DNA from: Blasia pusilla
Lineage: Eukaryota
NCBI GenBank assembly: GCA_050084515.1
Contig: CM114271.1
Location: 22,320,001-22,384,000 of the forward strand
Direction: 5' to 3'
Length of the DNA stretch: 64,000 nucleotides
Both the position numbers and the translations under genes were made by a program. The notes under the pieces are model-generated. The model was not told the origin of the DNA, did not search any database, and saw only the letters and a program-made list of their open reading frames with translations. Shown here one piece after another: positions 20,371 to 63,900 of the stretch; position 1 is the first letter of the stretch; every line of letters begins with the position of its first letter.

Positions 20371-20408
20371 ACCTACATATGTTGCTCGGAACTGTGGTAA
20401 GCGGAATA

Positions 20409-21475
20409 GGAACCACAGTTCTGATTCTTCCTCCTTCCTCTCGCCACACTTGAAGAAGAGCCACGCCTCACTTGAGAATCCGCGAAACAAGAACTTGAGT
20501 TCCGATTCTTCTCTCCTTCCTTTGAACGCCATGCTAAAACAGAGAGTTTTTTCGACCTCACTTCTTGGGTCCGTGCCAAATGGATCAGAACTTGAGTTCT
20601 GATTGCCTTTACTATCCTCTCCACCTCCCTGTAGAGAGAACACAACTAAGGAGTGGAATGGGAACTAGAGTTATGATTGCCTCCTTCCTATCCTCTCCAC
20701 CTCCTTGTAGAGAAGACCCACAAATGAAGGGCGGAATGAGAACTGAAGTTCCAATTGCATCCTCACTTCACTTCCATACGTTGCCGCATTAAGCCACGCC
20801 GTAGTAGTCAACTGCAGTTAAGACGCTCCACTGTTCTCCAACTGAGACATAATTGGAACTTGAGTTCCCAATCCTCCTTACTTCCTTGTCACTCTCGCCG
20901 CGCCAATCTTTGCTACGCCGGCGAGATGACCACCATGCACTTGAACCACGCCTTGGCTCAACCGAGCTCGATATGGAACTTGAGTTCCAAATCCCTTTTG
21001 CAACTTCTTGTTACCCTTGCCGCGCCGTGCCATTCCGCGCCCTTCAGGTGACTCAACCCTTTCTGCTAAATCAACACTTCAGTTTCGAGTCCTACTTCGT
21101 TGCTCTGCTCCAAACTACCTCTTGGGAGGGATCTACTGAATCAAAACTTAAGTTCTCATGCCTCCCTTAACTCCACCAACTTTGTGGATAGCAGTCCTAG
21201 GTATACTCCAGTAACGGCTCCAAACTAGTGACGCTAGCTCCTCCACACTAGCAGCACTCCAAACCTTTCTCAACCCCTCATCAAGGGAAAGCTTCACCAC
21301 GTAGCCTCTTCCTTGCCTTTCCTGAACCACGTTCACAAGGGAAATCAGAACTTCAGTTTCGATTGAATGAAGAGCTCCTCCTCCTCCTCCTCCTCCTCCT
21401 CCTCCTCCTCCTCCTCACTCCTTCTAACTAGCTCTCCAAACAAGGGCTATCAGAACTTAAGTTCTAATGCCTCCC
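20409..21475. repeat. Dispersed array of a short quasi-palindrome GAACTTRAGTTC (about 9-10 copies), probably inside a transposon
   Basis: Copies near 20491, 20588, 20663, 20740, 20856, 20975, 21144, 21348 and 21453, often followed by YRATT/ATGCC. Confidence 0.7.
21375..21416. repeat. (CTC)n microsatellite, about 14 units
   Basis: Directly visible. Confidence 0.95.
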
Positions 21476-29955: not shown

Positions 29956-32900
29956 ATGAACAGCCTTCAAACGGGGGCTCTCGAAGGCTTCGCTATGTGG
30001 ATATCCTTTCGGAGGCCTTTGAACAGAGCATTTTTTCGTACACTTGCTTTCCATCGGTCTCCGCAAGAGTTTAAAGGAGATCCTCTGAATGACAGTGTTG
30101 GCCAGGGTGCGAAACGGCCTGCCAAATTTCTAGACACAAGCTCTAGGTCCGGTGATGGCGATCAGCAGCCCCGCTGGTCCCAAGGAAACGAAATTTCCGA
30201 GTCTGGCCAGATCCGCAGACAAAATTTCGCCGGTTTTCATGAAAGAAATCACAGGCACGATGGATTGGAAGGACAAAGGAGGAGCTCGGAAGGGCTGGGA
30301 AGAGCTTCAAGATACTCACAAAGTAGGGAAAGGGATTCTCCAGGCACCGAGGCCCATTTCGTAGGCGAGAAGGAGTCCATAGGAGAGAGAAGGGGGATAG
30401 AAAGAACTCCTGAGAGAAGGCTGGATGGTTCTGGTTCCCGACGCCAACCTGATGTGGCTCCCCGTTCTAGAGATAGCGGAGATCAGCACTACGGATACTC
30501 GTTCCGAAATTCGAATTCAGAGGTGGGCGAATTTCGTAAAATAGATACTGGAAGTTCTCGTGGGAGAAGCGATAGACATGATTTCGTGGAAAGAGAAAGG
30601 AGGAGATTGGATTCGCGAAGTAGCGAGTCTTACAGAGGACGAAGTTCAGTTGACACAGACAGCAGGCAGATGGGTTCTCAAGTGACTGAGGAGTCGGGTG
30701 CTCGGGCCCAAACCTATCCGCGTCGTCAAGAAGGAGAGAAGAAATGGCAATTTGCCGTGAGGAAAAAGCAGCAGCTCGCCGGATGGAGTCGAGGCCAGAC
30801 AAGGAAGTCGACGCAGAAGTTTGTGGACGATGAAGATCTCGGGGACGAACCGCTGGGAGATGAATGGAGGCAGAAGAAGATGGCGTGGCTTTGCAAGGAG
30901 ATCCCAGGGCTCAAACCCCGTGGAGTCGTGACTATTTTGAATGAGCAACGTAAGTGGATAAATGCGACAGACGTTAAGTACATCGTGCAGCATTTACTCC
31001 GGATCGGCCAGTTCTTACGCGCCCACAGAGTAAGTGCTGGTCGTCTCACATCCGAGTCTGTATGGTGATTCTCAACAATATTCAGGCAAACGTTGTGAGC
31101 AATTTTCGCAGGTCCGAGCAGCAAGCTTCTGCACATTCAAGACTATATAACTTGGTCGGTGTCGTTTGATCAAGCCATTCAACTTGGCAGTGGATCTCCC
31201 AGCATCGAACGGATATCTCCGAGCAATACCAGCTGGGTTTAGAATGACATTTTCCACACATAGGTTTTTGTAAGAGCAATAGGCACTCGAAGAACTGACT
31301 GTCGACTCTGTGTGTTGTTTTTTGGAGCAGGTTTTAAAATGGGAGATGCAGCAACCTTGGTACGAGTACAACTTCGAGCTCAATACTGCAGTGGCCAATT
31401 CTCTCGGAGAAAATAATAAGCTGAGCAGGACAAGGGACCTTTACGATCTGATGATTCAGAATAGAAAGGTGCCGGAGCTTTCCACCTATGTGTTACTGAT
31501 AAATTGCTACATTGCAGATGGGACCAATGAAGCTCTACAGAAAGCTGGGAGTCTTTTTAATCAAATGATTCAGATGGGGGGTTATGAACCCCCACCAACT
31601 CTCCGCTACAAGCTATTCAATGCCCTTCTACAAAAGAACTTTACGCATCTTGACCAGGCGGATGCAGTGTTCGGAGGCATAAAAAATAGTGGCTTGGCAG
31701 TTAGTGAAGAGATGTACAACTCACTCATTCTCTTACACGGAACAAATGGAAATCAAGAGAGAGTGGACTTCCTGATAGAGGAGATGAAGAAGACAGGTCT
31801 GAAGGTTGGGGAGGAAGTCTACGCTGCCATTATAAGAGCGTGTGTCAAGGATGGAAATATCATGAAAGGCGAGCAGGCATTCACTGACCTTAAAAGTGTT
31901 TGGGAGAAGCAGATTCCCTCTGTCTATGCCTCCTTGATCAAGATGTATGGTGACGCAGGTTTGCCAGAGAAAGCTTTGGAGAGTTTTGAGGAGATAAGAC
32001 TCAGCGGGATAAGTTTGAGCATAAATATTTATGAACCAATAATTGCAGTATTAGCTGCAGCTGGAAAGAGACAGCAAGCTGAGAAGCTCCTGAAGGAGGC
32101 TCAGGAAAGAGGCCTGCCATCAATGCAGGGATGCTATAATGCTGTAATGGGATTATACTCGAAGTCTGGGTTGATACATGAGCTGGAGACAACCTTTCAG
32201 GACATGCAGAGTGCAGGTTGCAAGCCAAATGCTGCGTCCTTCAATGCAGTTCTGGAGGGATATGTAAAGTGCGGATTTCTGGAAAAAGCAGAGGCTGTTT
32301 TTCAGGGCATGAAGATTGAGGGTAGAATTGGTCCTAACCAGAGGACCTTTGAGATAATGATTAAGGCTTATGGTGATGCAGGAAACTCAGAAAAATTGAA
32401 GGAAATGTTCCATGAACTGGCTGGCAGGAAGATGGCTGTTCCACATGGAGCAGCTGAAGTCTTAGAGAAAGCTGTCAGTCCAAAAAGGCTGGATGCGTTG
32501 AAAAACTCGAATCTCAAGCTTAACAGAAACCAAAGAGAATTGCTGGCAGGAGTGCTCCTGGGCGGAGCGCGTGTAGAAAGTCATGATAAGAATCGGACTT
32601 ATGAAATTCACTTTGGATTGGATCCTGATAGTGAAGGTCAATCTATCTTGATTAAACATTTGTATGAGCAGTTCTCTGACTGGTCAAAAGAAGCTCCGAG
32701 GGAGCAGCCCATGAGTGACATCAAAGATCCTCTGAAGTCTAAAACATTGCTAACTTTCCAGACTGTAAGCCATGGAGCTTTCCGGTTTTTTGCCCATCAG
32801 TATAGACCGGACAGGAAAGCGAAGATTCCAAGACTTATACATCGATGGCTCAGTCCTCAGGCCCTTGCTTATTGGTATATGTATGGGGGTTACAGGTGCC

Positions 32901-33145
32901 CTCAGACTGGAGGTATAATCCTGGATGCATCACCTTACAGTGGCAAGGAGCTCATGCTGGTGGTGGATGCCCTCAAGGCAAGAACCATTGATTGTGAGTC
33001 CAAGAGACAGAGTAAGGAAGGGCTGGTTCTTCGTGTTACAGGCAAGTCTGCGACTTGGCTTTGGAAATTAATGGAACCCTTTATTATTCCTGGGTTGAAG
33101 GTTTCATTGAAGCCTGAGGACAGAAGTGTCTGTGAACCTAGTTAG
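29956..33145 (+). CDS. OTP51: P-type PPR protein with C-terminal LAGLIDADG domain (OTP51-like organellar splicing factor); exons 29956-31029 and 31331-33145
   Basis: Contains KKMAWLCKEIP...ILNEQRKWI and RAHR|VLKWEMQQPWYEYNFEL across a GT-AG phase-0 intron. Tandem ~35-aa PPR motifs follow (e.g. YNSLILLHG, FNAVLEGYVKCG), then LAGVLLGGARVES...FRFFAHQY...IPRLIHRWLSPQALAYWYMYGG. The start may be 29956 or 29995. Orthology versus paralogy is not established. Confidence 0.9.
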
Positions 33146-34846: not shown

Positions 34847-37344
34847 CAACCAGCCCAGATTAGGAGGTGACAATGGCTACATGACTCTGTACCTTGCTCT
34901 TCTACCATTGCCGTCACTTCATCTGTCGCTATGCTTCCATGGATCTACAGACAATCTCGCCAGTAGAGGGAGCCTTAGAATCCAGCAACTGGTGAGGTAG
35001 TGTCTTCACTCAAAGTAACAGTAGTAATTTAGGACACATCCAGCACAGCAAAAAAAGTGATTGGCGATCACTTCCTAATCTTTCCAAGACCCAGGCTGGA
35101 CGGAGTTTGTGGAGGCCAAGCAGAAAGTAATGATAGAAGAGACATGGATCGTAGATAATATATAACACACACGTAAGGTTCTGCTCTACTCAGTTTTCTT
35201 GAGAAGTGCATCTGGAAAAACCCTGAACCCTAAAGTGCATCCGAGCGAACATTGTTGCTATTTGAAGAGTTACAGATTTCCTGCTGCATGCCACTTCAAG
35301 CTCTTTCAGATCATGGAGTCATGATGATGATGACTTGGACTTTGAACTTACAACAGTGGAGAGGTGTAGCCAATCAAAGCAGCGTGGAACTGGATCAGAC
35401 TCTGAAGGCAAGACGTCATGGTTCCAATATGTCATGTCTCGGAACATAGACTGCGTCACCCATTCGTCAAATTTGGCCTCTTCAGCCCCTGAGTTAGCAC
35501 TGTTTCCTCCGGCTGAAATCCGGTTCTTCTCCAGAACATATCCTACAAAGAGGGAGAATAGATTAACAGAGTGTGTGAAACAATTCACTTTCTCATCTTC
35601 TTCAACTTTTGACATCACACAGACGCCGTGCCATGAATTCCCAGGCTGCTGAGCAGCTGTCAATAATCCCAAAGGAGTGCAAGGATTTAACGGGCCCTTA
35701 AGCAATTGCAGAAGATTAACATCTGACCCGTTATATAAATGGGCAGTGCTGAATAGTTCACCTGACTCTGCCTCTTCCATCGACCTCAATTACCATCATG
35801 CTTGCATTTACCCGAACATTCGTGCAAAGAAGGCAGCAGCAAGAGCGAGAGGTGCAGTAGGAGATATTGGCAGTAGCTGAACGAACGACGATAAAGTTGA
35901 TTGGAGGATCTCAGCTTCGCTTCTACTCTTCTCCACTTAGCTTCCATTGCTAAGATATATCAGAGCACATTGCTCTTCCTTAGATTCATCAGGGCTTTGA
36001 ACCGCCGTCCGCTTTGAAGTGAGAAGGCGCACAAATGATCCAGGGAAATACTCACCACAATAATTTGGAGGAAGTTCCAGCGTCGAGCCCAGCAACTTCC
36101 GTCCTCTAAATGCCGCCTCGCTTATCTCCATGTCATCCCTCCTCTCGCCTATTCTGAAGCAAAAATTGCAGATAAGCATCGTGTGCCATCAACGATTTTC
36201 AGCTGAACTGATCAAAGACATTTCCGCCATCGTCAGCTCTGTTCCCTTGCCAATCAATACTCACGATGGGAATTGTTATCCATGGCTGACTTCCTGCACC
36301 CCAACGAACCTCCAAGCCCACTCTCTTCCCGCCAAGCTTTCTCGACACAGTACACACACCATTATGCACTCGAACGAGAGAATAAATGGGACTGGAGTGT
36401 GACTACGGAATTCCACACTGAATCTCCGGAGAACCTAAACGGTGAGGAGATCAGTTACACGGAGAGAAACAAGCGCTAGTCATGATGGACTTTCCGATCA
36501 CCCTACCCTATCCTGCCCAAACACTCACTTCATACATCGACCATCGTACAAAGACTAGGCACACTCGTAGACGAATCCTCGGACGAGCCATAAACACTGC
36601 ATTCGATTAGCAAGTCAGTGAACAGACGCTATAGAAATAGACGAGAATCCCACACATTCGCGCCTTCCACTTCTGCATCCACTGCCCCTCGCTCGACACG
36701 CCAGTCGCAACAGGCCTCATGGCCTTCAGTATGGAAACACTCAGTGGATGCAGCAACAGAGATTGTGCACATCGACTCCTCCAGAAGTCTGTGCAGGATG
36801 CGTTTCCTGCTTCTCAACGTGCTTCATCCCGCTCACGAACAGAGTGCAGCAACAGAGATTGCGACCATAAACACCTCAAGCCTATGGAGGATACATTCCC
36901 CCCAGCTCATGGGCACAAGAAACACGGCCTTCCCTTCACGCCCTATTACCAGGGAACGTGAAGTCCACAGTTGAGACCGAAACCACTCAGTGAATCCAGA
37001 GGACATGCATCCATTTCCCGCTCCTCAAACCCACAAGAAACACAGCCATTGACGCCCCACTACAGAGAACTCGGGCGAGAAAACACTCAGTGAATCAATC
37101 CTGCGAGAGAAATTCTGAGTCCGGATGCGATGCACAGATTCTCTACTTCTGAAAACCGCTGACAGCGCGGGCCCTGACGTGCATTACCAGTGGGTTTAGG
37201 CGTGAAGAAGTGGGACACCGGCGCCGGGCCGTAGTGGTTGATGCAGCACGGCATCATGTGCATAGCTCCGCTCATGTCCATGCAATCATCCGTCACTCGG
37301 ACGACTCCCATAGCTCCATCGCTCCCTCCCGCCCGCATCTCCAT
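34847..37344 (-). CDS. RNASEH2C: Ribonuclease H2 subunit C; exons approx. 37344-37188, 36152-36056, 35540-35351 and 34944-~34847 (3' end uncertain)
   Basis: Translation has MHMMPCCINHYGPAPVSHFFTPKP, EAAFRGRKLLGSTLELPPNYCG|YVLEK and FRDMTYWNHDVLPSESDPVPRCFDWLHLS, the typical RNase H2C motifs. GT-AG junctions are present. Confidence 0.88.
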
Positions 37345-38054
37345 CCTTCCGCACTCCAACTCCTCCGGATCTCCACCGTATCGATTCTCGCGCTCCCTTC
37401 TCTCCTCCTCTTCGTCTCCTCTTCCGCTTCTCCGCCGAATCGATCCTCGCACTCCTGATCACCTCTCTTCTTCTGCTCTCCACCGAATCGATCCTCGCGC
37501 TCCCTTCTTTTCGACTGATTCTTTTCTCCGCCCACAAAAAGAGAGAGGCACAGAGAGACGGACCTCTGCTTCGTAACAGATAACAGACACAGAGATTCTG
37601 AAATAGAATCTCTCTCTTGTGCTTCAAAAGACACAGAGAGAGAGAGAGAGGGTGAGAGACGTTGCTTCGTACCCGCGATAGAAACCGGGTTACCGTTGCC
37701 AACTGTGGTAGGGGGGGTTCTACTGTGCCATACAAGGGGGGTGCTTTTATGGGGCTACTCAAAGGAGGCTTGTAGAGGGGGTGTTATAGGGCTACTCAAG
37801 GAGGTGTGATCGACACTCGCATAGTCCCCTGAGGACGACACACGCGGTTTTTGTTACGGCCCCTGCAAAGACTCCCTTTTTTTTCCACTTTTTTACTAAT
37901 TATTTCCTCTTCCACCTCTCTCACAAGGCCGCACATTGGTTTCAGAATATTAAGAACTAGTAAGGTGCCCGTGCGATGCACGCGTGAGGGAATACGAAAG
38001 ATGCAAATAGGCATGAAGGAAAAAAAAATTTGATCTGATTTTTAAATATTTATT

Positions 38055-41000
38055 TTATCCAAGAATTTCTTTATATACTACATTCCGTGTATAGTCACCT
38101 TCCTTGTTTGAATGTTCATCGCTTCCAATTGTAATGTGGATAGAACTTCTCTTCCCTACTCTAGATAATGCTACATACAATTGGCCATGAGAAAATACTG
38201 GAGTAGGCAAGTAAATGCCCACCTTTTGCAAAGTTTGACCTTGGGACTTATTGGTAGTCATAGCAAAAGCCAGTCGAATAGGGAATTGAAACCTACGTAA
38301 ATCAAATGGCAAACCTGAATCTGATGCAGTCAATGGGATACGTGGAACAAAAATTCGACTCCAATATTCTTCCCTGTGATGATTTCATCATCTATGCAAT
38401 GTTGCATAAATCCACGAATCACCAATCTTGTCCCATTTGCTTGTCCATGTGCTCCATTCATGTTTCGTAACAACATGATTGGTCCCCCAATCTTCAAACA
38501 CAATCGGTGCGGAGGAAGTCCTGAAGGCAAGCATGTGTTCAAAAATTCAGTTGGATATACATGAGTCATCCCCTCGTTTGGAATAGAGTCAACGCTGAGG
38601 TAAACTTGCTCATGTACACAAAATATAATGAGTTTGTAAGAAAAGGTAATATTAATATCCAAACTTGTAATTGAATAACTCTTTTATAAAAATTAAAGGG
38701 ATTACCTCTCTTGGAAACCGCGACATTACGCTTGCATTTATGTCATCTACATCTTGATTTCTTAGAGTCAAAATTGCCGTATCTCTCAAGAAATCAATGT
38801 CATTGAATTCGGATGGAAATTTTCGATATATCAAATCAAGAAGATCACATATCGTATTACTTCTAGTAACAATTTCAGATGGTAATTGTATAAAATTTTC
38901 TCCCAAATGTGGATGCAAAGGTACACGACCCTCTCCCACTTCTAATAACCAATCAGCAAAAGCTTGTTGTTCACTACGCAAGTGACCTTCCAACCTCTGA
39001 ACTCGCATGTTTGTAGTAAACTTCATGACCTTTACATTAGACCAAAGAGATGACCTCTTTATGGTGGCTTGGATGATTTGCGGCCGATCCCCATGACAAA
39101 CAACAGGAAACACTTGACGAAAATCACCACCAAATACCATAAGTTTTCCACCAAATGGTAATTGTCGGTGTTCATCAGAAACAACTCCCATAATATCTTG
39201 TAAAGTCCGATTTACAACCTCAAATGCGTGACGATGAGCCATAGGAGCTTCATCCCATATAATAAGCATTGCATCACGGATTGAGCGCGCTCCATCACTA
39301 TTAACCAACAAACTACAGTAAGAAAAGGGGAGTAAATTAGAACTTGTGCCACGGTGGAGGAAATTAAACTTTTGCATCACGAAGGTGGCACTTACTTGTA
39401 AGTAGAGCTCTCATGAAGATTGATGGGGATTTTGAATCGCGAATGTGCAGTACGTCCTCCGTCTAACAATAGAGCAGCTATTCCAGATGACGCCACAGCC
39501 AAAGCTATACCTCTTGCACTCCTTACACTTGCAAGAAGAAGATTATGTAAAAATGTTTTTGCCGTTCCACCTGGGCCATCGATGAAAAAGAATTTTGGAG
39601 ATGGTGGAGCATCCAAGCATATTTTATCAAGCTCATCATGTATAGCTCCCAAATAATACGTTGTCCTTCATTTAGACATGTTTCTCCTAATTGCACTTGC
39701 TCAAATAGTTCTTCCGTATCATACAAAAGCTCTCGTTCCTCCAAATATGAATTTGATTGAAGTCGTTGGAAGTCAGGTTGGGGCATGTCTGGAAAGTCTC
39801 ACAGTCTTTTCCTTGATCTTGTAAATAATAATGGACTTCCAACAATGCAGTATTAACCATAGCATCTTCAACGGGAAGATTAGGAATTCCAATTTTCTAC
39901 AAAATAGGATGATAACCCAAAATTTGTAGACTTTTGAATGCTCAATAGAAGATACTATTAAGAATTAAAAAAATATGCAAGGGTATTAATGAATTCTTAC
40001 CATACGCCGTTCATATAAGAGATCTTCTACCATTAGAACCAAAAATTAACTCCAGAGTGTTGCAGGTTGAGCAGATGTGTTGTACGCTAGAATAATTGCA
40101 AATAGGCGACAAAGTGAAGAACCTGTACGAATTGTAGAAGCTTCTTCAAAGCAAGAGAAAACTTCCCTATTATCCTCAAGAAGTCCCAATTGGATAGAAG
40201 CCTCCTTGAATGTTGGACATAATATCCCATTAACAGTTCTCAAACATTCATACGTAGTTGATCCTCGAACATGATGGAGAAGTAATCTCAACCAATGACG
40301 TTCTCCTTCACCTATGAGGAATTAAACTAAATGAGTTTATCCCAACATGTAGATACACTGCTTTAGAGGTGGAATATAAAAGGAATTATGTACAAAGAAG
40401 TTGTGAGCATTTACCTGGATGAGTAAGGTATAAGCCACAACCATTTTGTTTTTGTACCCTACGAATCCATCTCTTGTTACTCCAACGATAATAAGAAGGA
40501 AAATCTATGTATAGATATTTTCGAGCACTGGAGTCAGATAGATTGGTTGCAAACCATTGGGTCAATGTTGTCTCTCTTTTTAGTTGCAAAATATCTCCAG
40601 GAGCGTCAACATCATTGAAGTAGACTAATTTTTGTTCTGGAAGATAGACTGCTAGTCGTACGATACTTGGAAGTTCAGCATGTAGACTAAACTTAAAGAG
40701 ACGCCAACATGCTTCCGAAGAAGATATATATCTAGAATAATGAGAATTCCAAGTATTTGAGTGAGAAATTACATGAGAAGGACTCTCCCATAATTACATG
40801 AAGTTGAGAAATAAAATATAATGCATCAGAGAAGTCAATCCATAAAATCATACCTTGCATCAAGATATGACATTGTCTCGTCAATAACTTCGATTACATT
40901 GGATGTATCCATATCCTTTGACAACTTAAATGACACAGCATCAGATCCTTTATAAACATATTTGTATAAGTACTTGACAGCAAAAACACTACTTGTAATC

Positions 41001-43820
41001 TCCAAATTAATGTGACAATCAAATAGGATGCATAACATCAGATTGTAAGGTACAACCCAACGATTATCCAATGAATATTCGCTCTTAATTATCGCCCTTC
41101 CATTCTCCAATCTACAAAAATACAATAACAATCGTAATTAATCATGAATGAATGTATTAGAAGGAATCATGCATACATATGCCTAAAAAATAAAAGGGTC
41201 CTCACCTACGATATATCGGATAACCATCTTATGTTTCGGTACTGTTGGCCGCAAAAGCTTTAGGATAGCCTTTTGTACATTTTTTTGTTTCCTTATCCAT
41301 ACACATATCATTTGGATTTAATGGTCCACATGGATCGTGAACCACGCAATTAGCAACGGTAGAATACAACCTTAGATGGGTAGATTGATCAGGGATTTCA
41401 GTTGAAATGATTCGATCATAATCACTTGTGGTACGTGGTTTATCCTCACGACCTAAAATAATAAGGACATGCACATGCGGTAAGCCTCTTTTTTGGAATT
41501 CCACCACATGGATGCATCCTACAACTCGGCCTAATATCTGTTTCTTGATGATAAGTCGTAACAACTCCTTCTTTTTCTTCTCAAAAACCCGCACAACCAA
41601 ATCTGGTCGGTCTACAGCTGATTGGCCCGGTAATAGGGCTGAAGTAATCTCCTCCCACTTTGGATTGCATGTCATGGTTAAGAAGTAGTCAAGCTTCCCA
41701 AAATGTCGTACAATTGCCATTGCATCCTGATACAATTGATGCATATGACGTGGCCCTCTAGTAAAAGAAGAAGGTAATATAATTCGTTTCCCAAGCCTTC
41801 GGCTATCCGCATCTTGTCGATGCATGGCATCCTTTACACCTTGATATAATTCAGCCCTCAACTCCTTATGATTTAAGCGCACCCATAATAATCGTTGCAT
41901 TTCCACAATGGCATAGAGGTCAACCATATATTCTTGAGTAAGTCGACGAAGCCGCAATAAGCGATTGTCATCTTCTCCTCCAACCTGAGTTTGAAGTCGA
42001 AAACATGCAAATTGCAAGGCCGTAACACATTTTGTTCTTCTTTCCTCAACAATATCACCATAAACTATGTCCTCATCCATGCAATCATCTGCAGGTTCAG
42101 GATGTCCCTCCTCTCCATGAATAATGTGGCCCAATCGTCGGGATTCCCTACAACCTTCAATTCGCCCAAAGGGTATTCCAGGATGCCAATCTGCTTCACC
42201 ATAGATAAATAACAAAACAAAGTGTAAGGGAATATATGCTTCATTGAGGTCGGATATACGTTTGACTCCTCCTCCATGTAGTCGTACAATTATATCACGA
42301 TGCTCAACGTGTTCACTTCCATCACCCGGAAAAATAGCATCAACTTCAAACGCAATTAGTAAGTTATAACGCCTTGCATCAGGTCTTCTCTTACTTGCCT
42401 TGAGGATAATCCGCACATTAAGATCACTTGCTTCATATGCCATATGACGAAAGATCTTCACATATGGATTGCATTCATGTAACATGTCTTGGAGACCTTT
42501 CAAAATATCCATATTAAGAATAGAAGATGTAGACATAACTCTAGCACGATTTTCCAATTCATTTGTAGTATCATGGATGTATAGTTGAGCAAATTGAGGA
42601 TGTCCCCCAATATCAGGATGTAAAGGTCCAATGGAATGATAGATCCCGCCTTGGACCCTAAAGTGTCCAGTGCCACCAATTTGTTCGTTTACATGTACCC
42701 CGGTAGATGCAAGTTGAAGTGCCGAATTATAAGCTCGAGCATGAGTAAGAAAATGAACGCTTCTAGGACTAGCACCCGAAATCAAGGATTTCAGAAATGG
42801 AGGAGATGATCTCAAGAGAGGTAAGTATATTCTTCCATGGCCACAACACATGCCATATGGTGAGTCACCAAACTTAATACCTTTGACCACTTCACATTTC
42901 CAATGCAAAGCACGACATGAGGGACATATCTCTGTCATAGAACCTAATGTATGACGACCGCTGGTACGATTCAAACTCCTTTGTAATTGCAACTTTCAAA
43001 TATCACTTTCTTGAAAATTTGGCCTCCTTGCAAGATTGAGAGTTGTATTTAATCTTACAACTCTATCAAGGGTAGACGATCCATAAATTATAGAAGTGTT
43101 TGGTACAGTGGCACGTTGTGGAGATAACAAAACTCCATTAGGAGACATGGCATCTACTCTTGACCTTGATTCATCCCCGAGTTGGGAAAAAGTTGACGAA
43201 TTGTTGAAAACTTCATCTGGAATAGGAATAGGAAGAGTGGTCGACGAATTGTCGACAACTTCATCTTGAACTTGAATAGGAAGAGCGGTCGACGAATTTT
43301 TTACAACTTCATCTTGAATTGGAATAGGAGGAGTGGTAGGTAACTCAACTTGTGGTGGCCCAATCGTGGATGTATTCTCGATAACTTCATGAAATGCATT
43401 GTCAACTAACTCGAGTCTTGGCGATATATAAATATAATCCGTCGAGTGTTCGCTCACTTCTTGATTTTCTTCTACTATTATTCCATCTTCATTTGAAGGC
43501 CTGAGAAAATATGTCAAAATATTGATAAGAATAAATACAAATCAAATATGGAGTAAATCAAGTAGTTATGAAGTGAATAGTTAGATAAAGGTACCTATTC
43601 AATGGAATAGGTGCAATACTCTCAGGCTGAACTTGACCATTAAGCCCTTTCCTTCTTTTTCTATACTCTCGATAGTAATTCCTCTTTTTTTCTTTGAGAG
43701 CTTCCATTCTATCAGCCCGAATAGCACGCTTTCGTTTTTGGGCTTCGCCACGTAGAACCTTCCAAAAGTCACGTATATTGACAGGATTCAATGGGATTGG
43801 AAGTCTGGAACAACACATGA
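38055..43820 (-). pseudogene. Helitron RepHel (Zn finger, HUH/Y2 Rep and PIF1 helicase), multi-intron and disrupted
   Basis: Motifs: CPSCRALHW...CCGHG; VVEFQKRGLPHVHVLI (HUH); KYLYKYVYKG (Y2); FFIDGPGGTAKT (Walker A with G>A); [31 protein letters not shown]. In-frame stop at 41229-41231 and several frameshifts. Confidence 0.93.
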
Positions 43821-56429: not shown

Positions 56430-57175
56430 AGCGATACCAACATTGTTCTCAGATGAGGGAGAGGGTGTAGCGAAGGAGTTTGTTAGTGCATCATCGCATA
56501 TGTTGAGTTGTCCTACCGTTTGGGCATGTGAGATAGACAATTGGGATAGAGGAACGCATAGGTTTTCGAGGGTTTTGGGTACTATAGAGTTGTATCGAGA
56601 GTTGTACGACTTCATTACAGAGTTTATGAGTTGGCGTGACTTATAGAGGGCCATGAACTCTAGAGAGTTCAAACCTTTCGCAACATGGAACGGGATATTC
56701 CAACACCTAAAGGAAGAACCCATAGAGGATAACCATGAGTTTTTCCATAGGTACATGTTCAAGATTGAGGCATAGAGACTCTACTATGATCCATATTACG
56801 TGTCATGGAGTGAGCCATTTCAAGATAAGGAGGAAGACCTATGGGAGGCTACTTCCTCTGCCACTAGTAAGAGTCAAGGAGGGGTGAGTCAAACTGGGGC
56901 ACTTGCATCGTCTAGTTGGGTTTATCCTAGGTTCAACCCTATGGTTGAGTTCTTTGCGGAGTTATAGAGGAACTACAACGTGGTATGGATTGAGAATTTG
57001 CGGAGCATCCACGACTTCCATATGCACATAGGGGAGATTTTGGGGGAGGCATTTACTCGCATGCGTTGTCTGATTAGTGTTACGCGTGACAACAACCATG
57101 ATCGTCTGCACCACCAGTGCAGCGACATGGATTTTGAGAGAGGAGTGTGGTATCACAAGCTCAAGAAGGTTATTG
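56430..57175 (+). pseudogene. Decayed LTR-retrotransposon gag fragment, same family as 19514-20330
   Basis: ELYDFITEFMSWRDL*...FATWNGIFQHL...FNPMVEFFAEL*RNY...LRSIHDF...GEAFTRMRCLI aligns by eye with the 19.5-20.3 kb gag. Confidence 0.65.
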
Positions 57176-57179
57176 TGAG

Positions 57180-60100
57180 CATGTGCTAGAGCAACCCATG
57201 CCATCATCCACAACTGGAGTCATCACCTGTGACTGACCTACCATAGTCAACCAACAAAGATAAGCATATGCATGCCAACCACGCACCATTTCCTTATCAC
57301 TCTCTCCGTGCCATCGAGCTCCTATGTCGTCTCTCTAACTCGCACATGGGTTACATCTCAACCCATCCGCATCTTGGTTCAACCGACCTGGCCTATGAAC
57401 CACCTCAAACTCATACTCTTGTAGTAATAGAGCCCATTGGCAAGCTTTCCCGTACGCTTGTTGGACTCCATCAACCACCTCAACGGCTGATGATCAGTGA
57501 TAAGTGTGAAAGGGTTGCCGAATAAATAGCACCTGAAATATACCACTGCCCACACTGCAGCCAAGCACTCTCCCTCACAAGAGTTGTACTTTGCCTCTGC
57601 AATGTTGTTCGATCGGCTCGCGTAAGCCACAAAAAAATCCTTTTCCTCATCATCTCTCTGAGTAAGCACTGCTCCTAGACCCAACATGCTCCAATCCGTA
57701 TGTAACTAGAATGGGCGACCCCTAACCGGTCTCTGTAAAATGGGTGAGTACGTCAACCTGTCCTTGAGCTCCTGAAATGCTTGCTCTTGATAATCTCCCC
57801 ATAACCAAACCTGATCAAGTCTCGTCAACAAGGTCAAAGACTTTGCCATCGCACTAAAACCCTTGACATACCATTGATAGAAGTCTTCCAGTCCAAGAAA
57901 CGCTCGGACTCGACTCACATATGTAGGGCGTGGAATCTACGCAATAGCCTCCATCTTCGTCTGCTAAACGCCTAACCCTCTCGGGTATATGGTGTGTCCC
58001 AAGTACTTAATCTGCTCTTGAAAGAATATGCACTTGGTTGGATGTAACTTTAGTCCATGTAACTGCAATCGCCGAAACACCTCCCCCAGGTGTCGCTCAT
58101 GCTCCTCAACCGTGGAACTGAAGATAAGAATATCATCTATGTAACATGGTACAAAATCCAAGCTAGCCATAATCATATCCATCACTCGCTAAAACTGTGC
58201 AGGCGCGTTCTTCAACCCAAATGGTAAGAACTGCCACTGATACAAGCAATCTCTCTCGAAGTGATCTATCCCCTAGAATGCTCTCTTCTCCCTCTCCTCC
58301 AACCTGATAGGAAGCTGATGATAGCCAGCACGGAGATCTAAAGTACTGAAGATCTTTGCATGCCCTAGGGCATCAAAGATCTCCTCAGGAGTAGGCATGG
58401 CGTACCGATCTGACCTCATTTGTCGGTTGATAGGACGGTAATCTCCACACATCCGCCTATCCGTCCAATTGCCATACATATCCTTCTTCGCAGACATGAC
58501 TGTGGCAAATGCATACTCCCCATGTGATAACTCCACAAGTCCTGCCTCCAACAAGTCCTGACTCCTGCTCTCAATCAAGGCTCGCTCCATATCAGAATAC
58601 TTGTAGGGTCGATGAAAGATCGGCGTATCACTAGCCAACTCAATCCATTTCTCGTGACCCTTTAGCGTACCCAAGTCTCTCATATTGAAGGAAAAACAAC
58701 TCACATGCCTTCTCAAAAACCTATGAACTCGCCGTCGCTCTCCTCCTATCAACTTGAGAGCTATCACGGGCTCCCAAGTCTCCATCGTGACCTCACTCAG
58801 AGAGGACGCAACCTCTGGCTTTGGTTGCTATGTAGCAATCCTAGCCACCTCCGCAACAGCCATTCCACTTTGACCTCCTACACCATGCTCCACATCCAAA
58901 AAATGAACATGCGCTACTCTAGCCCCCTTTGCACTCTCTGCTCGAACAATGTCCCAGGAAGTCCATGGGTGCCTATCTCTCCTCGTCCCGCCCCCAACCA
59001 ATGCTTGTATAGACCCTGTAGGAAATGGTCCAACTTGTGGACGTGACGACATGGATGACATTTGCATCCCTCTTTGCTCTGCCATACCTAGGCTGACTAT
59101 CCATGTGAGACAGTTGAGGTCCATTGCCTACCCCAACACCTGTCTCCGAGATGCCTCAGTCATACCTGGCACCGCCGTAGTACCTGTAGCAAACCCCATG
59201 GTGCTCTTGCACTCATCTACTGTAGGCTCCTCCAATGCTCCGATCACCTCATCCCAAATCATGCCTAGCCCTCCTTGATGAAAGGCATGGGATTCTGGGA
59301 AGCTCACCAACGTAGGTAAGGCTGCCCTCAACTCCCCCATCCTATTGGCCATGCCAATGGTGGTCTATCATCACGCGTCATCACTTGAGATCGACGCCCT
59401 GAGCCCAAAATAGCATCCACTGTGAGATGTGGTGCTCTTGGACTCCATCGTATGCTCGACTTAGTACCTTTGATGGTATCAAGTTCATCCACCATAGTCG
59501 TGGACGATGGGCATATGATCCAACTCTCGCTGCATCTAGCAACACAGCAAGTTCCAACCAGGATCCCACCTGATGCAAACTTGTCATCACACGTGCACGA
59601 GTGTCTCCCAACAACGGCACGTTCTCCAAAATATACGCCGAAGAACATGTCTGACTCTCTTGCAAGTGTCGTACTACTTGCAGCATCTCCAAAAATATCC
59701 TTGACCTCGGATCCTGCAATCCAAATCCTCGGCCCGTTGATGAATGACCCTGACATGGCCATCCAGAAATCACCAAATGAATGGTGCCAACTCTATCCAG
59801 ATCCTACGCCCCCACCAAAGAGATGTCGGCGGGTAGTGTATGCTAATATCCCCGTAGTGCAAATACCAGCAACAACTCATGATACCTCTGGACCAATCTC
59901 GCTACGTGACGTAATGATACTCGCCGTACGGTCTCGTTACGTCTCTCCACATAAAGGTACTGTTGCACCCGTCTGCCCGCCTGAAATATAGCAGCCAATC
60001 CGGTGCTAATCCCTCTGAAGAGATCTAATACCCTAACACCCTCCTCTGAACACTGCCACACAATGGGTGTGGTATCAAGTGGGGTCAGTGTCTCCACTCC

Positions 60101-60570
60101 AAGGGCCCGCTTGCCACCTGACTCTCGCTGCTCCGGGATAAAGGCATGACTCCATGTCTGCCTCATAAGGTCGTCGGCACTTCTCTGTAGCTCTCGAGTC
60201 GTATCCCATAATGGTGAAGAGGTCTTGCCAAAATGGGAAGAGACACCCGCCATGGCCTGTCTCTCCGTGGGACTATCCGCTACTGGGACATCCTCAACAT
60301 GTGCATTCCCCTCCAACAATTCTTCTGGCCAGCTAACACTACCTATGAAAGTTGCCAACATGGTCACAGACTCGCCTCGTGATCGACCACCTCGTCCCGC
60401 AAACTGCACGGGTAACTGACTCATCCGCCCATCACCTGACCGCCACCCTGTCTGATAAGAAACGGTCTTCTCCCATAAGTCAAGGATGAATCCTAAGGGA
60501 TATAACACTGTACTCCCAACCAACACATCGTACGACTCAGCTGGTGTCGTAAATCTGAGAAATTCCAAAC
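57180..60570 (-). mobile_element. Ty3/Gypsy pol remnant with order protease C-terminus, C5 DNA methyltransferase, RT, RNase H; truncated at both ends
   Basis: Protease tail: YDVLVGSTVLYPLGFILDLW. RT: RMCGDYRPIN, DRYAMPTPEEIFD, FSTLDLRAGYHQ, LPFGLKNAPAQF, YIDDILIFS. RNase H: LHTDWS, VAYASRSNN, YLFGNPFTLITDHQPL. Many stops; no integrase present. Confidence 0.92.
59090..60040 (-). pseudogene. Retrotransposon-encoded C5-cytosine DNA methyltransferase domain (frameshifted)
   Basis: Motifs occur in canonical order: I VLDLFRGISTG, II YLYVE, III LPADI, IV LVISGWPCQGHS (Cys codon 59755-59753), V DPRSRIF, VI YILENV, VIII HRPRLWW, IX EPTVDECKSTMGF, X RRQVLG*AMD. Confidence 0.9.
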
Positions 60571-61119
60571 TCACTCGTTGGTCCCTCATTTTTATGGTTG
60601 CAAACCATCCGACAGTCCATGGTTCCTTGGTTCGCAATCCGTTGGAAATCGATGGGTTGCAAAATAAACAGCATCAAGATAGATCAACACAATCGACAAG
60701 AAAAAAAAAATTCAGAAAAAGTTTACAAAAACCATCATGGTTCAAAAACTTCTTGTCTTTTATTACATCCGAGGGAAGTTAGGAAATGTACATTTGATCT
60801 AGTCTATGATTTCTTGAGCCTCGTCACCTACAAATTTACTCCTAACTCTTCTATGTTCCTGTACAAAAGGAATGTCTTGGGATACAAGTGGCTCCTTTGG
60901 CTAATTGTAGACGGGGATTGTAAATGTTGGGGAATTTGAGAGCCTTGGTCCCCCCTTAGGTACACCATAACGGTCCCATGTAACATGATTTGAGTCCCAA
61001 CGCCTTGCTCGACAATAAATCTTGTATTCTCTGTAAGATGACACCCATCTAGTATCAATATGTGCTCCGTCCTTGAAAACAACTAAATCGGTTGTTCCAC
61101 TTCTCCTGTTCCACAACCA

Positions 61120-63900
61120 CTATTGATAGTTTCGGATAGTAGGAAGTGAAAATGGTGTCACTATCAATAGTGGTTGTGGAACTGGAGGAGTTGGCTTTGG
61201 AGGAGAGTTGTATACTCCCACTAGCCTCTCATAATCCACCCTTGCCTCTTTGCAAACGTCAAAAAGTTCTAGCCTTCCCTCAAGGCAGAGAATGTTCCTT
61301 CCACTCTGCCAAGCGCCTGTGATACTCGCCCCTGATAGGCCCACTAAGTCAAAGACCAAGTCACCCGGCCTCGAGCACAGCTCTATGAGTGTTTGCATCA
61401 AGGCATGTGATTTCTCCCTTCCTCCAAATTCCGGGGGGAATTGTAGAGACTATCTAAGTTGTACCCATCGGAGCATGGATCCACTGGATCCGGGATCTGG
61501 AACACCTGGAAGTTGTGCTCGGGCCTTACAAAGCACTAGACAAATGAGTGGTCCATGTGTGAACAAGCACGTGGAAAATAATGTTAGCAAAAAGAAAAGG
61601 GTAGTTGACCAACTCTCCATAAAGTGACACAATGTGCAACCCGTCGGGATCCGACGGGTTGCTCATTTGGCTAGACAGAATAGCAACCTGTCGGAGTCTG
61701 ACGGGTTGCTTTTCAATACGTCCTACTAGTCCCAAGTGATTACCAACCCATCCAAACTTGGCCTATAGGCCTGACAAAAGAGCAACCTGTCGGAGTCTGA
61801 CGGGCTGCTTTACAACTCTAAGAGGATTCTTCGGCTATGAGCAACCCGTCTGAATTTGACAGGTTGCTCATTTTGCTGGACACAACCGCCAACTGTCGGA
61901 GTCCGATGGTTGGCTTACAACTGAATCAAATTGTTCAAAGTTGAGAAGTTCCTAATATGAGAGCAACCCTTTGCTTTCAGACGGGTTGCATCACTCCAGA
62001 AACAAGTGGAAAAGCAATGCTATTTGCAACACGTTGGATTCTGACGGGTTGCAATCACTGGAGACATGTTGGTGAATTTGCAACCCGTTGCTTTCAGACG
62101 GATTGCATCATTGCAGACACAAGTGCAAAAGGAATTCTACTTGCAACCCGTCTGGTTCCTAGGGTGAATTTGAAACATGTTGGGATCCGACATGTTGCAT
62201 GCAGAGATGCAACCCGTCGGAGTCCGACAGGTTTTATTTCTGAACAAACTCAATTCGTTCAAAAAGTGCACTTACCCGGACTTGATTTGTCGCCGATCTG
62301 AGTGGATAATCATTTTTTATGAACCATGATTGCGCCGTCGTCCACTTCAGTGACCTCTTCATGCCATGAAGGTTGAAGAGCTCGTCTTCGCTCCCTCCAG
62401 TAAGGACCAAGAAATAACCCCTGTCACTGAGATACGCGTCAGCAAAAGAAAACAACAGAGCGATATGGTCATAGGAAAGTGGGACATTCCAATATGGGAC
62501 ACTATCAGAGGGATTGTTGTCCCACAAGCAAAACCCAGAAGGCAAATATCCAATGAGGAGATCCACCACCGCCTCCTCAGCAACCCCATGCACCGTCCAG
62601 GGGGCGTGCCCATTTCGATGGAGTTTTTGCCCTAGCACGGTCAATTTCTCGATGGCAGGTATCGACTCCTGAGAACTGAAACTCTACAATTTATCAACAA
62701 GATGAGTCAAGTAAAGAAGGATATTTGTCCTAGTGATCGTTTCCCTGTGCCTGCCCAAGGATGATGGAGTGTATTCCACATCCTTATCTCCTCCCTCGGA
62801 CGAACCAGGCACCTCTCGCTTTCGCTTCTCTCGAGTGTGTTTTCGGCTTGTTGGAGTCTCTATTACCTTAGACTCCACATGAGTTTTCTTTGATGAGGAC
62901 GAGGTCTGGCCCTCTCGCCCCTCTCGCCTCGACAAATTTGCCTCTCGCCTTGAACACTCAGCCTCTTTTCTCGAAGACTCGGCCTCGGAATTCCTCGATC
63001 CCCTCGCCCTGGCTTTCAAACCCGTTGTGGATTTATCTTTGGCAGTGACAACCTTTGCCACCAACTTCGTTGTCTCGAGGGCTTGCTCCTCCGCATCTCC
63101 TTCAAAAAATTTGTCAAGCTTCACAAAGTTTGGAATGTCGTCCCTACATGTGACCACTGCATCATAGATCACGTGTAGATTTTTTACTGTAATGTCCTTT
63201 GGATCGTTGAAGTCCAACCAGATTAGAAAATTTATTACCTCCTAGTCAAACATGCCCTGTCCCATCTCCATGTCATACATGGAAAATCCCTCTCCATGAG
63301 GCAGAGAAGCCCACAATTTGTAGGCTACCAAAAATTTTGCGCCAAGTACCTGCATTCACACAATTGATAAGGTACATGTACACCATCCGCTGGGGAGCTC
63401 TTTGTCGAGATAACTCAGCCACCTGGTCCTGAAAATCCCACTTTGTTTTTGCAAAATCCCATTTTTTGGCGTATATTTCCTCGACCAGATCTGCCTCAGG
63501 GAGGATGTAATTCTTGAACATCATCCGGAATCTTGGATTTTCCGTCGGCTTATCTCTTATGTCATCAAGCCATAGTTCAAAATCTTCTGCAGCCTCTAGG
63601 TTTGCTTCCTCTAGAATTGGCTCAATCTTCTTCAACTTTGCTTGTAGACCCACAATCATGGACTTCCCGAGAAGGCGCAACGCATCCCAGAATGAATGAT
63701 CATTCCCGTAGCCAATGGAAGATCACTGGATCTCAAACTCCCAGAGGGTGGTGTGCCACCCGCTTCTGTGCCTCAGTGCCCTCGAGACTCGTTTTAATCA
63801 GTCGGATTCGCCTAAACTCGGATATGCCTGACAGCGCAAACCTATGCACGCGATCTAGAGACAATTTCTCTCCGATCTGACCCTATGGATCCTCGTCTCT
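61120..63900 (-). pseudogene. Spliced, partly decayed gene ending in a beta-class amino-DNA-methyltransferase-like (N4C/N6A) domain; probably transposon-borne; 5' part runs off the window
   Basis: Exon ~62670-62276 has VDLLIGYLPSG (motif IV position)...FADAYLSDRGYFLV. Exon ~61500-61120 has EKSHALMQTLIELCSRPGDLVFDLVGLSGASITGAWQSGRNILCLE, comparable to KP..L...LI...S..GD.VLDPF.GSGTT..AA...GR..IG.E. A GTAAGT donor lies at 62275. Upstream open frames are at 62684-63217 and 63273-63680. Confidence 0.65.
61636..62235. repeat. Array of about 11 copies of a 27-bp palindrome (consensus GCAACCCGTCGGAnTCCGACGGGTTGC) with variable spacers
   Basis: Copies start at 61636, 61683, 61782, 61841, 61888, 61963, 62026, 62080, 62143, 62172 and 62209. 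Copy 1 has a perfect 12-bp stem. A further copy lies at 60634-60660. Confidence 0.9.

Follow-up and report, generated by a model that had tools for sequence, protein, structure and literature searches.

The window analysed here, a stretch of 64,000 nucleotides from a Blasia pusilla contig, contains a row of short GC-rich palindromes next to sequences that resemble DNA methyltransferases, which raises the question of what such an array is and how it came to lie there. The array spans positions 61636–62235 and consists of 11 palindromic units of 27 nt, which align in MAFFT without gaps in one fixed register (12 + 3 + 12 nt) and have the consensus GCAACCCGTCGG-N3-CCGACGGGTTGC. The spacers between them measure, in order, 20, 72, 32, 20, 48, 36, 27, 36, 2, and 10 nt. 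The initial annotation of this DNA had described about 11 fixed-length palindromes with spacers of roughly 2–70 bp, and our count of 11 units with spacers of 2–72 nt agrees with it. Neither the array nor any of its units is assigned to a strand.

Copy 1 (61636–61662) is a perfect palindrome around the centre GAT, with 12 of 12 Watson–Crick pairs between its arms. Ten pairs are retained in copy 2 (61683–61709), copy 5 (61888–61914), and copy 10 (62172–62198), nine in copy 3 (61782–61808), copy 4 (61841–61867), copy 7 (62026–62052), and copy 11 (62209–62235), and eight in copy 6 (61963–61989) and copy 8 (62080–62106). If G:U pairs on the plus strand are counted, copy 2 also reaches 12 of 12. Copy 9 (62143–62169) preserves the left arm only and, pairing at just 4 of 12 positions, is therefore a half copy. 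An outlying twelfth palindrome (60634–60660; eight Watson–Crick pairs, or 12 of 12 with G:U pairs on the plus strand) sits in a segment of approximately 100 nt that is rare in the family of related elements (read depth of 45 versus ~900 in the adjoining sequence).

With at most two mismatches allowed, the half-site matches 19 times in the 64-kb window, compared to 1.82 expected matches, and none of 100 shuffles reaches 19. Fifteen of these matches belong to the array, two to the twelfth palindrome, and two are lone occurrences at chance level (6849 and 46603); 17 of the 19 fall inside the host element. All 12 two-armed copies of the palindrome in the window lie within 1.6 kb of that element, and the remaining ~62 kb hold none. 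A scatter of the motif independent of the methyltransferase gene, which the initial annotation had named as one ground for refuting its idea, was not seen in the window. The confinement of the two-armed copies, together with genomic reads that join such palindromes through other spacers at depths tracking those of the flanks, supports the view that the array belongs to the element family and is not a foreign insertion. The 27-mer pattern was found at 0 loci in metagenome contigs, and a search of literature full text for the motif letters returned just unrelated primers.

The host element is a dead copy of a high-copy plant retroelement family. On the minus strand, it carries a Ty3/gypsy-type reverse transcriptase and RNase H with in-frame stops (57379–58827; PF17917 and PF17919) and a fragment of a C5 cytosine DNA methyltransferase (C5-DNMT; 59381–59803; PF00145, E-value = 6.2e-08). 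We found no long terminal repeat (LTR), primer-binding site (PBS), or element end in the 64-kb window, nor an LTR pair or a second copy, and the place of the array within the element is therefore not fixed. A further block (56599–57084, with a relative at 19562–20056) was considered as a gag gene and rejected, as it has no Pfam support. The surroundings comprise plant nuclear genes (PPR-LAGLIDADG and SRP68), a Helitron, and a retroelement.

The array grew by repeated local duplication of blocks made of palindromes and spacers. The block of copies 1 and 2 matches that of copies 4 and 5 (79 per cent identity over 80 nt), which makes copy 4 the homolog of copy 1; the block of copies 6 and 7 matches that of copies 8 and 9 (84 per cent over 79 nt), with copy 8 a duplicate of copy 6; and copy 3 duplicates copy 2 (88 per cent over 48 nt). 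The higher-order duplication that had been suspected from the resemblance of the spacers after copies 1 and 4 and after copies 6 and 8 is thereby borne out, in blocks of 48–80 nt that are 79–88 per cent identical. By hand count in the array blocks, duplicated palindromes are 78–81 per cent identical and duplicated spacers 75 per cent; in this one copy, the palindromes were thus kept no better than the spacers, and no constraint is visible after duplication. The array in this dead copy is decaying, mostly at CpGs. In a BLAST search of the spacers, a check that the initial annotation had proposed, all other matches within the 64-kb window were 10–15 nt long and at chance level.

On the minus strand, upstream of the C5-DNMT and the reverse transcriptase and RNase H, two coding-like blocks are separated by a non-coding gap, which the array occupies. 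Two hypothetical proteins of liverworts are homologous to the upstream block (‘exon 1’; 62276–62683) over their 115 C-terminal residues and end at the same point as it does; the block continues upstream to 63241 across one in-frame stop. Liverworts are the only source of detectable protein relatives of the element. This block has no family match in Pfam, only chance-level matches in a PDB profile search, and an AF2 model with a mean pLDDT of 40.7 that is unusable for a fold search. Its nearest clusters in the ESM Atlas are all methyltransferases (0.78–0.82), at the level of a lead only. The downstream block (‘exon 2’; 61120–61449) is weakly similar to the AdoMet-binding end of beta-class DNA methyltransferases, with 21 bits against Pfam N6_N4_Mtase (PF01555; below the cut-off of 26.7) and PDB matches to M.RsrI (E-value = 0.03) and DpnA (E-value = 0.11). 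No homologs of it were found among ‘longer’ or ‘near’ lengths. A protein-profile search of metagenome contigs gave 114 pattern matches, none of which was confirmed. In alignments read by eye, the catalytic (D/S/N)PP(Y/F) motif is not present, the aligned position reading GYLP here and DLPT or DLPK in the two liverwort relatives. The label ‘methyltransferase-like’ for the flanking blocks is thus a weak one, drawn from sequence similarity.

We also examined whether the gap could be an intron. A candidate 5' splice site GTAAGT (62270–62275, minus strand) follows codon CGG in phase 0, where the upstream block ends, and a candidate 3' splice AG (61450–61451, minus strand) forms part of an in-frame TAG; the two would give GT..AG borders and an in-frame join. 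Beyond that TAG, the frame of exon 2 continues for 70 open codons (61453–61662, minus strand), and this segment matches exon 2 in DNA depth and in RNA cover as far as 61556. An alternative acceptor lies at 61557–61558 (minus strand), where the window reads AC and 484 of 572 genomic reads carry the base that makes an AG. RNA reads of relatives diverge from the window exactly at 61556, and the 20-nt sequence that they carry upstream of this point has no match in the 64-kb window. The same reads cross 61450 unspliced, and no joint between the donor and the acceptor occurs among the 15 joints listed (106 more exist). It is possible, judging from the splice-site letters and reading frame, that the gap is a GTAAGT..AG in-frame intron. 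In the earlier description of an intron between two methyltransferase-like exons, the intron is thus a model only, and the evidence for a methyltransferase is weak, the upstream block matching no family at all.

Genomic reads extend the picture from this copy to its family. In about 1 per cent of one whole-genome sequencing run (likeness of at least 80, 81-nt bins), depth is ~900–1240 in the flanks versus 137–602 in the array bins, and it is lowest in bins that are mostly spacer. All 15 joints listed touch a palindrome on at least one side, and 14 of them link two palindromes, by skips of 77–546 nt, by backward jumps, or between opposite strands; none of the 15 bridges the flanks without palindromes. 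The joined palindromes are separated by other letters, such as a stretch of 25 nt in 13 reads and one of 17 nt in 17 reads, and past the last palindrome there is a heterogeneous loose end (226 reads, agreement of 0.48). At the resolution of 81-nt bins, these patterns fit palindromes that are shared and spacers that are private across the family. The data thus show in part that the palindrome is the common unit and that spacer sequence and copy number vary. RNA reads from three runs under the same species label, which derive from diverged relatives, cover the downstream block and have zero depth over 61777–62181 in all three runs. Palindrome-containing RNA reads are few (7, 7, and 12 at 61689; 2, 8, and 3 at one joint). 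Given this near-absence of array RNA, a role of the array in abundant RNA is a candidate only.

Do the arms evolve as pairing partners? Changes in both arms that preserve pairing had been reported for copies 5 and 10, and both examples hold: copy 5 has A3>C and C5>A, and copy 10 has C6>A and C7>T, in each case in both arms. Across the 12 related sequences, four pairs are altered on both sides, compared to 1.7 in shuffles (22 of 500 shuffles reach 4), and the covariation score is 0.247, compared to 0.192 (19 of 500), with the shuffle control not to be read as a probability. The both-arm changes give modest backing to a reading based on base pairing. Of the proposal that the array is a structured RNA, the pairing component is thus modestly supported; the RNA component, with zero RNA-seq depth of relatives over 61777–62181, is a candidate only. 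Folding of the whole array is more stable than that of shuffles on both strands (z of −13.8 and −8.8); we discarded this measure as uninformative, since any repeated palindrome would fold in this way. The best Rfam match of the array scored 26.9 bits, compared to a gathering score of 84, and all miRNA-like matches were below threshold.

The palindromes hold 21 CpGs in 297 nt, compared to two in 303 nt of spacers. On the plus strand, C>T changes outnumber G>A changes by 20 to 5 (raw P-value = 0.004), or by about 16 to 5 without the changes common to duplicates (hand count), and hairpin energies are −183.1 kcal/mol on the plus versus −160.0 kcal/mol on the minus strand (Wilcoxon P-value = 0.07). 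The strand favoured by hairpin energy and substitutions is antisense to the open reading frames (ORFs) of the element. The signal of strand asymmetry is weak. A G>A bias of retroviral type was rejected as its cause, because the flanks are balanced (T>C 80, A>G 79, C>T 83, and G>A 74, counted at the family level in genomic reads as places per kind of change).

A second array, built from an unrelated palindrome, lies 41 kb away in the same window (20404–21470). Five of its pairs are changed in both arms, compared to 2.2 in shuffles (5 of 500 shuffles).

We consider that the array is probably a repeat module intrinsic to a high-copy plant retroelement family, non-coding and prone to form hairpins, with a putative role. 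The host has a Ty3/gypsy-type reverse transcriptase and RNase H together with a C5-DNMT, and a methyltransferase-like gene lies upstream; repeated local duplication of palindrome-plus-spacer blocks gave rise to the array. Some mechanism requiring base pairing would maintain the likeness of the arms, perhaps selection acting on a stem-loop that forms in unspliced RNA or single-stranded cDNA of the element, or copying from one arm to the other through fold-back or template switching while the element is reverse-transcribed or replicated. In live copies, the array may well act as a cis-acting structured region akin to the palindrome clusters of Sireviruses, which the excerpted text of PMC4728375 describes as regulatory and as hot spots of small RNAs and indels.

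The LTR palindromes of Sireviruses are the closest analogue. According to the same excerpt, Sireviruses have, per LTR, ~7.3 copies of a 17-nt odd palindrome (CACCGGACtGTCCGGTG in the maize Ty1/copia elements Ji and Opie) in indel-prone, hairpin-forming, siRNA-rich regions, and more palindromes near the envelope-like gene are credited there to earlier work (PMC4728375). As far as that text allows a comparison, the systems share several close copies of a short, GC- and CpG-rich, odd-centred palindrome in a plant retrotransposon family, arms that are better kept than the centre, and a hairpin-prone, indel-rich setting that varies between copies and families. Here, the cluster comprises 11–12 copies of one GC-rich palindrome within 1.6 kb, family-wide in reads, and its behaviour as a hot spot of indels and copy number is seen in the skipping (77–546 nt) and backward joints, the altered letters, and the reduced depth. 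Unlike in the excerpted Sirevirus description, the unit is 27 rather than 17 nt long, the host has a Ty3/gypsy-type reverse transcriptase and RNase H with DNA-methyltransferase genes, and the array is internal, in a gap that may be an intron, rather than in a recognised LTR or its U3 part. For the cis-regulatory and silencing-trigger regions of plant retrotransposons, clusters of palindromes are the best candidates, and close analysis of them has mainly concerned maize Sireviruses. If the preferred reading is true, the same device would be present in a very different, gypsy-type element with DNA-methyltransferase genes and in an internal position, and CpG-holding palindromes beside the methyltransferase genes of an element would offer a testable link from the methylation machinery that the element encodes to a defined target.

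Two further groups of elements share parts of this architecture. Ogre and EVADE are intron-bearing plant LTR retrotransposons whose splicing was shown experimentally (work cited in the excerpted part of PMC12786077). As in these elements, the internal region here may hold a spliceosomal intron (GTAAGT..AG with an in-frame join); unlike in them, as far as they are portrayed there, no spliced read occurs among the joints listed, RNA crosses the proposed acceptor, and a second acceptor model exists. We know of no palindrome array in Ogre or EVADE introns. Methyltransferase-carrying retrotransposons include KnitGypsy-Dnmt3 (PMC5890265) and DAM-LTR/EpiLTR (bioRxiv 10.64898/2026.05.21.726589), which, in the excerpts of these sources, resemble our element, which combines a Gypsy-type reverse transcriptase with a C5-DNMT and has a second methyltransferase-like ORF upstream of these, and differ from it in their Dam-type (NPP) adenine methyltransferases, the block here matching N6_N4_Mtase only below threshold. 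A term search of the bioRxiv preprint found neither introns nor palindromes nor tandem repeats mentioned. A bolder version of the preferred reading, which we regard as unlikely, is that family-specific arrays of CpG-bearing palindromes form a conserved cis module of methyltransferase-carrying retroelements in this plant lineage. They would work as stem-loops or intermolecular duplexes of the unspliced genomic RNA or the cDNA (in dimerisation or packaging), or as the preferred target of the DNA methyltransferases that the element itself encodes; arms would co-evolve under this constraint, spacers and copy number would be free to change, and the two unrelated arrays in the window would be two examples of one general device.

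Alternatively, an ancestral inverted duplication could have been amplified by slippage or unequal exchange into neutral, minisatellite-like junk, with symmetry arising by chance or as a by-product of copying; the array would then be an ordinary hypervariable repeat in a dead transposon. The higher-order duplications, the fact that palindromes and spacers have decayed equally when duplicates are compared (hand count, this copy), an array depth below that of the flanks in the family, the lack of RNA over most of the array, and the borderline statistics of arm symmetry and hairpin strand are all in line with such an origin. We nevertheless hold it to be somewhat unlikely, as family reads show the palindrome beside many different spacers, both arms carry exact mirror images of two double transversion/transition changes, an independent second array has the same symmetry, and nearly all CpGs of the region are in palindromes. 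A tiny, independent MITE-like palindromic element, or a foreign insertion that landed by chance, could explain why an extra copy sits ~1 kb off, in a segment rare among family copies, as well as the heterogeneous loose end. This is very improbable given that no two-armed copy lies in the remaining ~62 kb, that depth in palindrome bins never exceeds that of the element flanks, and that the array grew by block duplication and has no TIR or TSD structure; to our knowledge, 27 nt is also far below the size of any MITE. The label ‘CRISPR-like’ in the initial annotation reflects appearance only, namely a partly palindromic repeat of fixed length whose spacers differ. Because the spacers are of unequal length (2–72 nt), are paralogous to one another through duplication, and have no matches elsewhere in the window, an adaptive array of this kind is already refuted; moreover, the repeat is a feature of a eukaryotic, plant nuclear retroelement with very many genomic copies, and none of the 54 ORFs scanned matched a Cas family.

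Finally, the palindromes could be binding sites for a dimeric protein, either the methyltransferase-like or DNMT protein of the element or a host factor for which they serve as an enhancer or silencer. The two-fold symmetric 12-nt half-sites, repeated 11–12 times at fixed spacing, the concentration of CpGs in them, and the C5-DNMT and methyltransferase-like ORF encoded beside the array would suit this function. In En/Spm (CACTA) and Ac/Ds transposons, short subterminal motifs in both orientations and at irregular spacing form multivalent binding sites, and the array resembles these in its short repeated motif, its two orientations, and its irregular spacing; it also has the letters CCGAC in common with what we take to be the TnpA motif. 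Unlike in those transposons, no transposase, TIR, or element end is near. The suggestion that the palindromes are transposase sites is not supported, as the host is a retroelement with a reverse transcriptase and RNase H, in which no transposase was found. Binding by any dimeric protein strikes us as quite unlikely: the mirrored changes of copies 5 and 10 are predicted by pairing and not by a shared recognition sequence, and thus favour the former, no DNA-binding domain was identified in the ORFs neighbouring the array (Pfam and PDB profile searches), and the catalytic motif of the methyltransferase-like block is degenerate in the alignment read by eye. As a lead only, 6 of the 12 palindrome centres read ANT and so give G-A-N-T-C (copy 4 carries its presumed ancestor), which is presumably the site of some beta-class adenine methyltransferases.

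The palindrome array at 61636–62235 of the window is best read as an intrinsic repeat module, prone to hairpins and highly variable, of the retroelement family whose dead minus-strand copy carries it. It comprises eleven units in fixed register, as proposed in the initial annotation, each with two 12-nt arms that are reverse complements of each other around a three-base center (consensus GCAACCCGTCGG-N3-CCGACGGGTTGC), and the units align without gaps. Copy 1 is a perfect palindrome, copy 9 consists of the left arm only, and the remaining copies form 8–10 of the 12 Watson–Crick pairs. The spacers measure, in order, 20, 72, 32, 20, 48, 36, 27, 36, 2 and 10 nt. Half-sites with at most two mismatches occur 19 times in the 64-kb window (1.82 expected; none of 100 shuffles gives as many): 15 belong to the array, two make up a twelfth palindrome at 60634–60660, and the two lone matches are at chance level. 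Copies 1 and 2 are 79 per cent identical to copies 4 and 5 over 80 nt, copies 6 and 7 are 84 per cent identical to copies 8 and 9 over 79 nt, and copies 2 and 3 share 88 per cent over 48 nt. These identities indicate that the array grew by duplication of palindrome-plus-spacer blocks, in agreement with the higher-order duplication suspected initially. Few members of the family have the segment around the outlying palindrome (60553–60650, about 100 nt; depth of 45 vs about 900), and at 60552, 756 genomic reads depart from the window sequence toward one consistent alternative.

With the stem imposed on the plus strand, 86.1 per cent of 144 cells pair. Both arms of copy 5 carry A3>C and C5>A, and both arms of copy 10 carry C6>A and C7>T, as had been noticed. 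Across the array, four pairs are changed on both sides, compared with 1.7 for shuffled data (22 of 500 have at least four), and the covariation score is 0.247 vs 0.192 (19 of 500); this signal is modest, and the copies are related to one another. Among plus-strand changes from the consensus, C>T is seen 20 times and G>A five times (raw binomial P-value = 0.004), or about 16 and 5 times in a hand count after removal of duplicate-shared changes, from which follows a tendency of plus-strand mismatches toward G:U. The hairpins have a total energy of −183.1 kcal/mol on the plus strand vs −160.0 kcal/mol on the minus strand (Wilcoxon P-value = 0.07). At the family level, variation in the flanks has no strand bias (T>C at 80, A>G at 79, C>T at 83 and G>A at 74 places). 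The strand signal of the array is weak and points to the strand antisense to the open reading frames. The palindromes hold 21 CpGs in 297 nt vs 2 in 303 nt of spacers, and an Rfam search of the array gave no match at the gathering score.

We compared the window with reads at least 80 per cent alike from about 1 per cent of one whole-genome sequencing run and from three RNA-seq runs, all under the same species label. DNA depth in the flanking blocks is about 900–1240, which indicates a high-copy family; the majority of family reads are <90 per cent alike to the window. Within the array, binned depth is 137–602, with its minimum in mostly-spacer bins. All 15 joints listed (there are 106 more) have a palindrome on at least one side, and 14 of the 15 run from palindrome to palindrome, with skips of 77–546 nt, backward jumps or strand changes. 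At many joints, other letters lie between the joined palindromes (e.g. stretches of 25, 34 and 17 nt, in 13, 9 and 17 reads, respectively), which places the same palindrome in further genomic copies whose spacers and unit numbers differ. None of the listed joints represents a family copy in which the flanks are joined and the palindromes absent.

The array grew by block duplication, spread family-wide and decayed through CpG-driven change. The initial interpretation is partly supported, in that the array is part of the element family and its symmetry is of a structural type; its description as CRISPR-like is refuted, and the suggested transposase link fails, as no transposase is present. Neither a foreign insertion nor a spacer-acquiring array describes this built-in family module. 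Block duplication would also be expected of a neutral minisatellite, which is quite possible. We consider an array of protein-binding sites, the main idea of the initial annotation, doubtful; recurrent half-sites would suit it, but the mirrored arm changes do not favor it. An independent mini-element is unlikely. Under the preferred reading of a family module, the likeness of the arms would be upheld by a pairing-dependent process, and the module may be cis-acting in those copies that are still live.

The palindrome-rich region of maize Sirevirus long terminal repeats (LTRs) is the closest published analogue. As described in PMC4728375, a 17-nt odd palindrome occurs in about 7.3 copies per LTR, its center is less conserved than its arms, the region is a hot spot for 19–22-nt indels and siRNAs with predicted hairpins, and additional palindromes near the envelope-like gene are credited to earlier work. 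Introns are known in the plant LTR retrotransposons Ogre and EVADE (PMC12786077), and DNMT-bearing Gypsy elements and adenine-MTase retrotransposons are described in PMC5890265 and bioRxiv 10.64898/2026.05.21.726589; a term search of the latter turned up neither palindromes nor tandem repeats.

The window is plant nuclear DNA with a PPR-LAGLIDADG gene, SRP68 exons, an RNase H2 subunit C gene and a Helitron. On the minus strand, in 5'–3' order, the element reads as an open frame with one in-frame stop (63241–62276; the upstream block), the array-holding gap (between 62276 and 61449), a second open frame (61449–61120; the downstream block), a 276-codon frame, a C5-DNMT fragment (PF00145, E = 6.2e-08), and a Ty3/gypsy-type reverse transcriptase (RT) with RNase H (PF00078, PF17917, PF17919) whose frame is split by in-frame stops. 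This copy is dead. At 57379–63722, one degenerate minus-strand element appears to join the RT/RNase H, the C5-DNMT and the upstream MTase-like gene; most family reads diverge from the window at 60552, so that the blocks may not form one element in most genomic copies. A 2026 report gives retroelements with two DNA-MTase modules from Cymbomonas and Euglena only.

The identification of the array-flanking blocks as methyltransferase exons is weakly supported. The downstream block matches N6_N4_Mtase at 21 bits (cut-off 26.7) and M.RsrI at E = 0.03, whereas the upstream block matches no family. The latter's putative catalytic motif looks degenerate by our own reading, its ESM Atlas neighbors are methyltransferases at the level of a lead, and its AF2 model is unusable (pLDDT 40.7). 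Among 1.84 billion representative proteins, the upstream block has two real relatives only. Both are hypothetical liverwort proteins, from Riccia sorocarpa (35 per cent identity) and R. fluitans (29 per cent), and both end at the same point as the block.

A candidate donor, GTAAGT (62275–62270), comes immediately after the final codon of the upstream block, and a candidate acceptor AG at 61451–61450 would connect both frames in phase. The proposed intron (62275–61450) is a fair model, against which stand three observations: beyond a single TAG, the frame of the downstream block is also open for the 70 codons upstream of 61449; genomic depth and RNA cover stay undiminished to about 61556; and at 61557, 484 of 572 genomic reads have a base that creates an AG, with RNA reads of relatives departing from the window exactly at 61556 (14, 14 and 21 reads, by run). 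This second acceptor does not share the donor's phase. No spliced joint is among the 15 listed joints. Under either acceptor, the array lies entirely within the non-coding gap.

RNA reads are almost all of one direction, which would be the minus strand with standard libraries, and they differ from the window at several bases and therefore derive from relatives. Depth is about 13–46 across 60805–61556, falls to 1.6–12 as far as 61776, is zero across 61777–62181 in all three runs and does not exceed about 5 over the upstream block. Palindrome-bearing reads are few (7, 7 and 12 at 61689), and one palindrome–spacer–palindrome joint occurs in 2, 8 and 3 reads.

Near the downstream block, a hairpin at 61095–61194 (32-nt arms, 94 per cent complementary) overlaps the block's end; it has a miRNA-like Rfam match below threshold (42.9 bits vs 99) and a genomic depth about one-third that of its flanks, and expressed relatives have a different sequence between 61089 and 61136. 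At 61425–61433, at the start of the block, the window copy lacks about 26 nt present in most family copies (loose ends of 246 and 420 reads, one consistent sequence).

In a second, unrelated array, at 20404–21470, a different palindrome of about 20–22 nt (type ATCAGAACTT|AAGTTCTGAT) occurs 11 times at irregular spacings of 74–372 nt, with five both-side pair changes vs 2.2 for shuffled data (5 of 500), and there is a (CCT)n run near 21377–21415. In a window scan, 9-mers recurring in both orientations were confined to the regions of the two arrays. Beside the second array, 19562–20056 is 58 per cent alike in DNA to 56599–57084 beside the first element, a shared block without a Pfam family, and 17071–17307 is 66 per cent alike to 56452–56211. 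The first-element counterparts sit just past its RNase H; likeness in translation is about 43 per cent, one pair being in the same orientation and the other inverted. Across the window, short palindromes with 10-nt or longer arms, no more than one mismatch and a loop of 0–6 number 73 raw and 41 merged, vs a back-of-envelope random expectation of about 13, with small clusters at 18088–18198 and 19317–19656. Elsewhere in the window are minus-strand Helitron-type Rep/helicase genes (38330–43541; Helitron_like_N E = 6e-56, PIF1 E = 1e-39), a further Pif1 2B fragment (1151–1606), an intact plus-strand 620-codon PPR protein with a C-terminal LAGLIDADG_2 domain (31283–33145), and the host genes for SRP68 (6783–9048) and RNase H2 subunit C (35319–37458).
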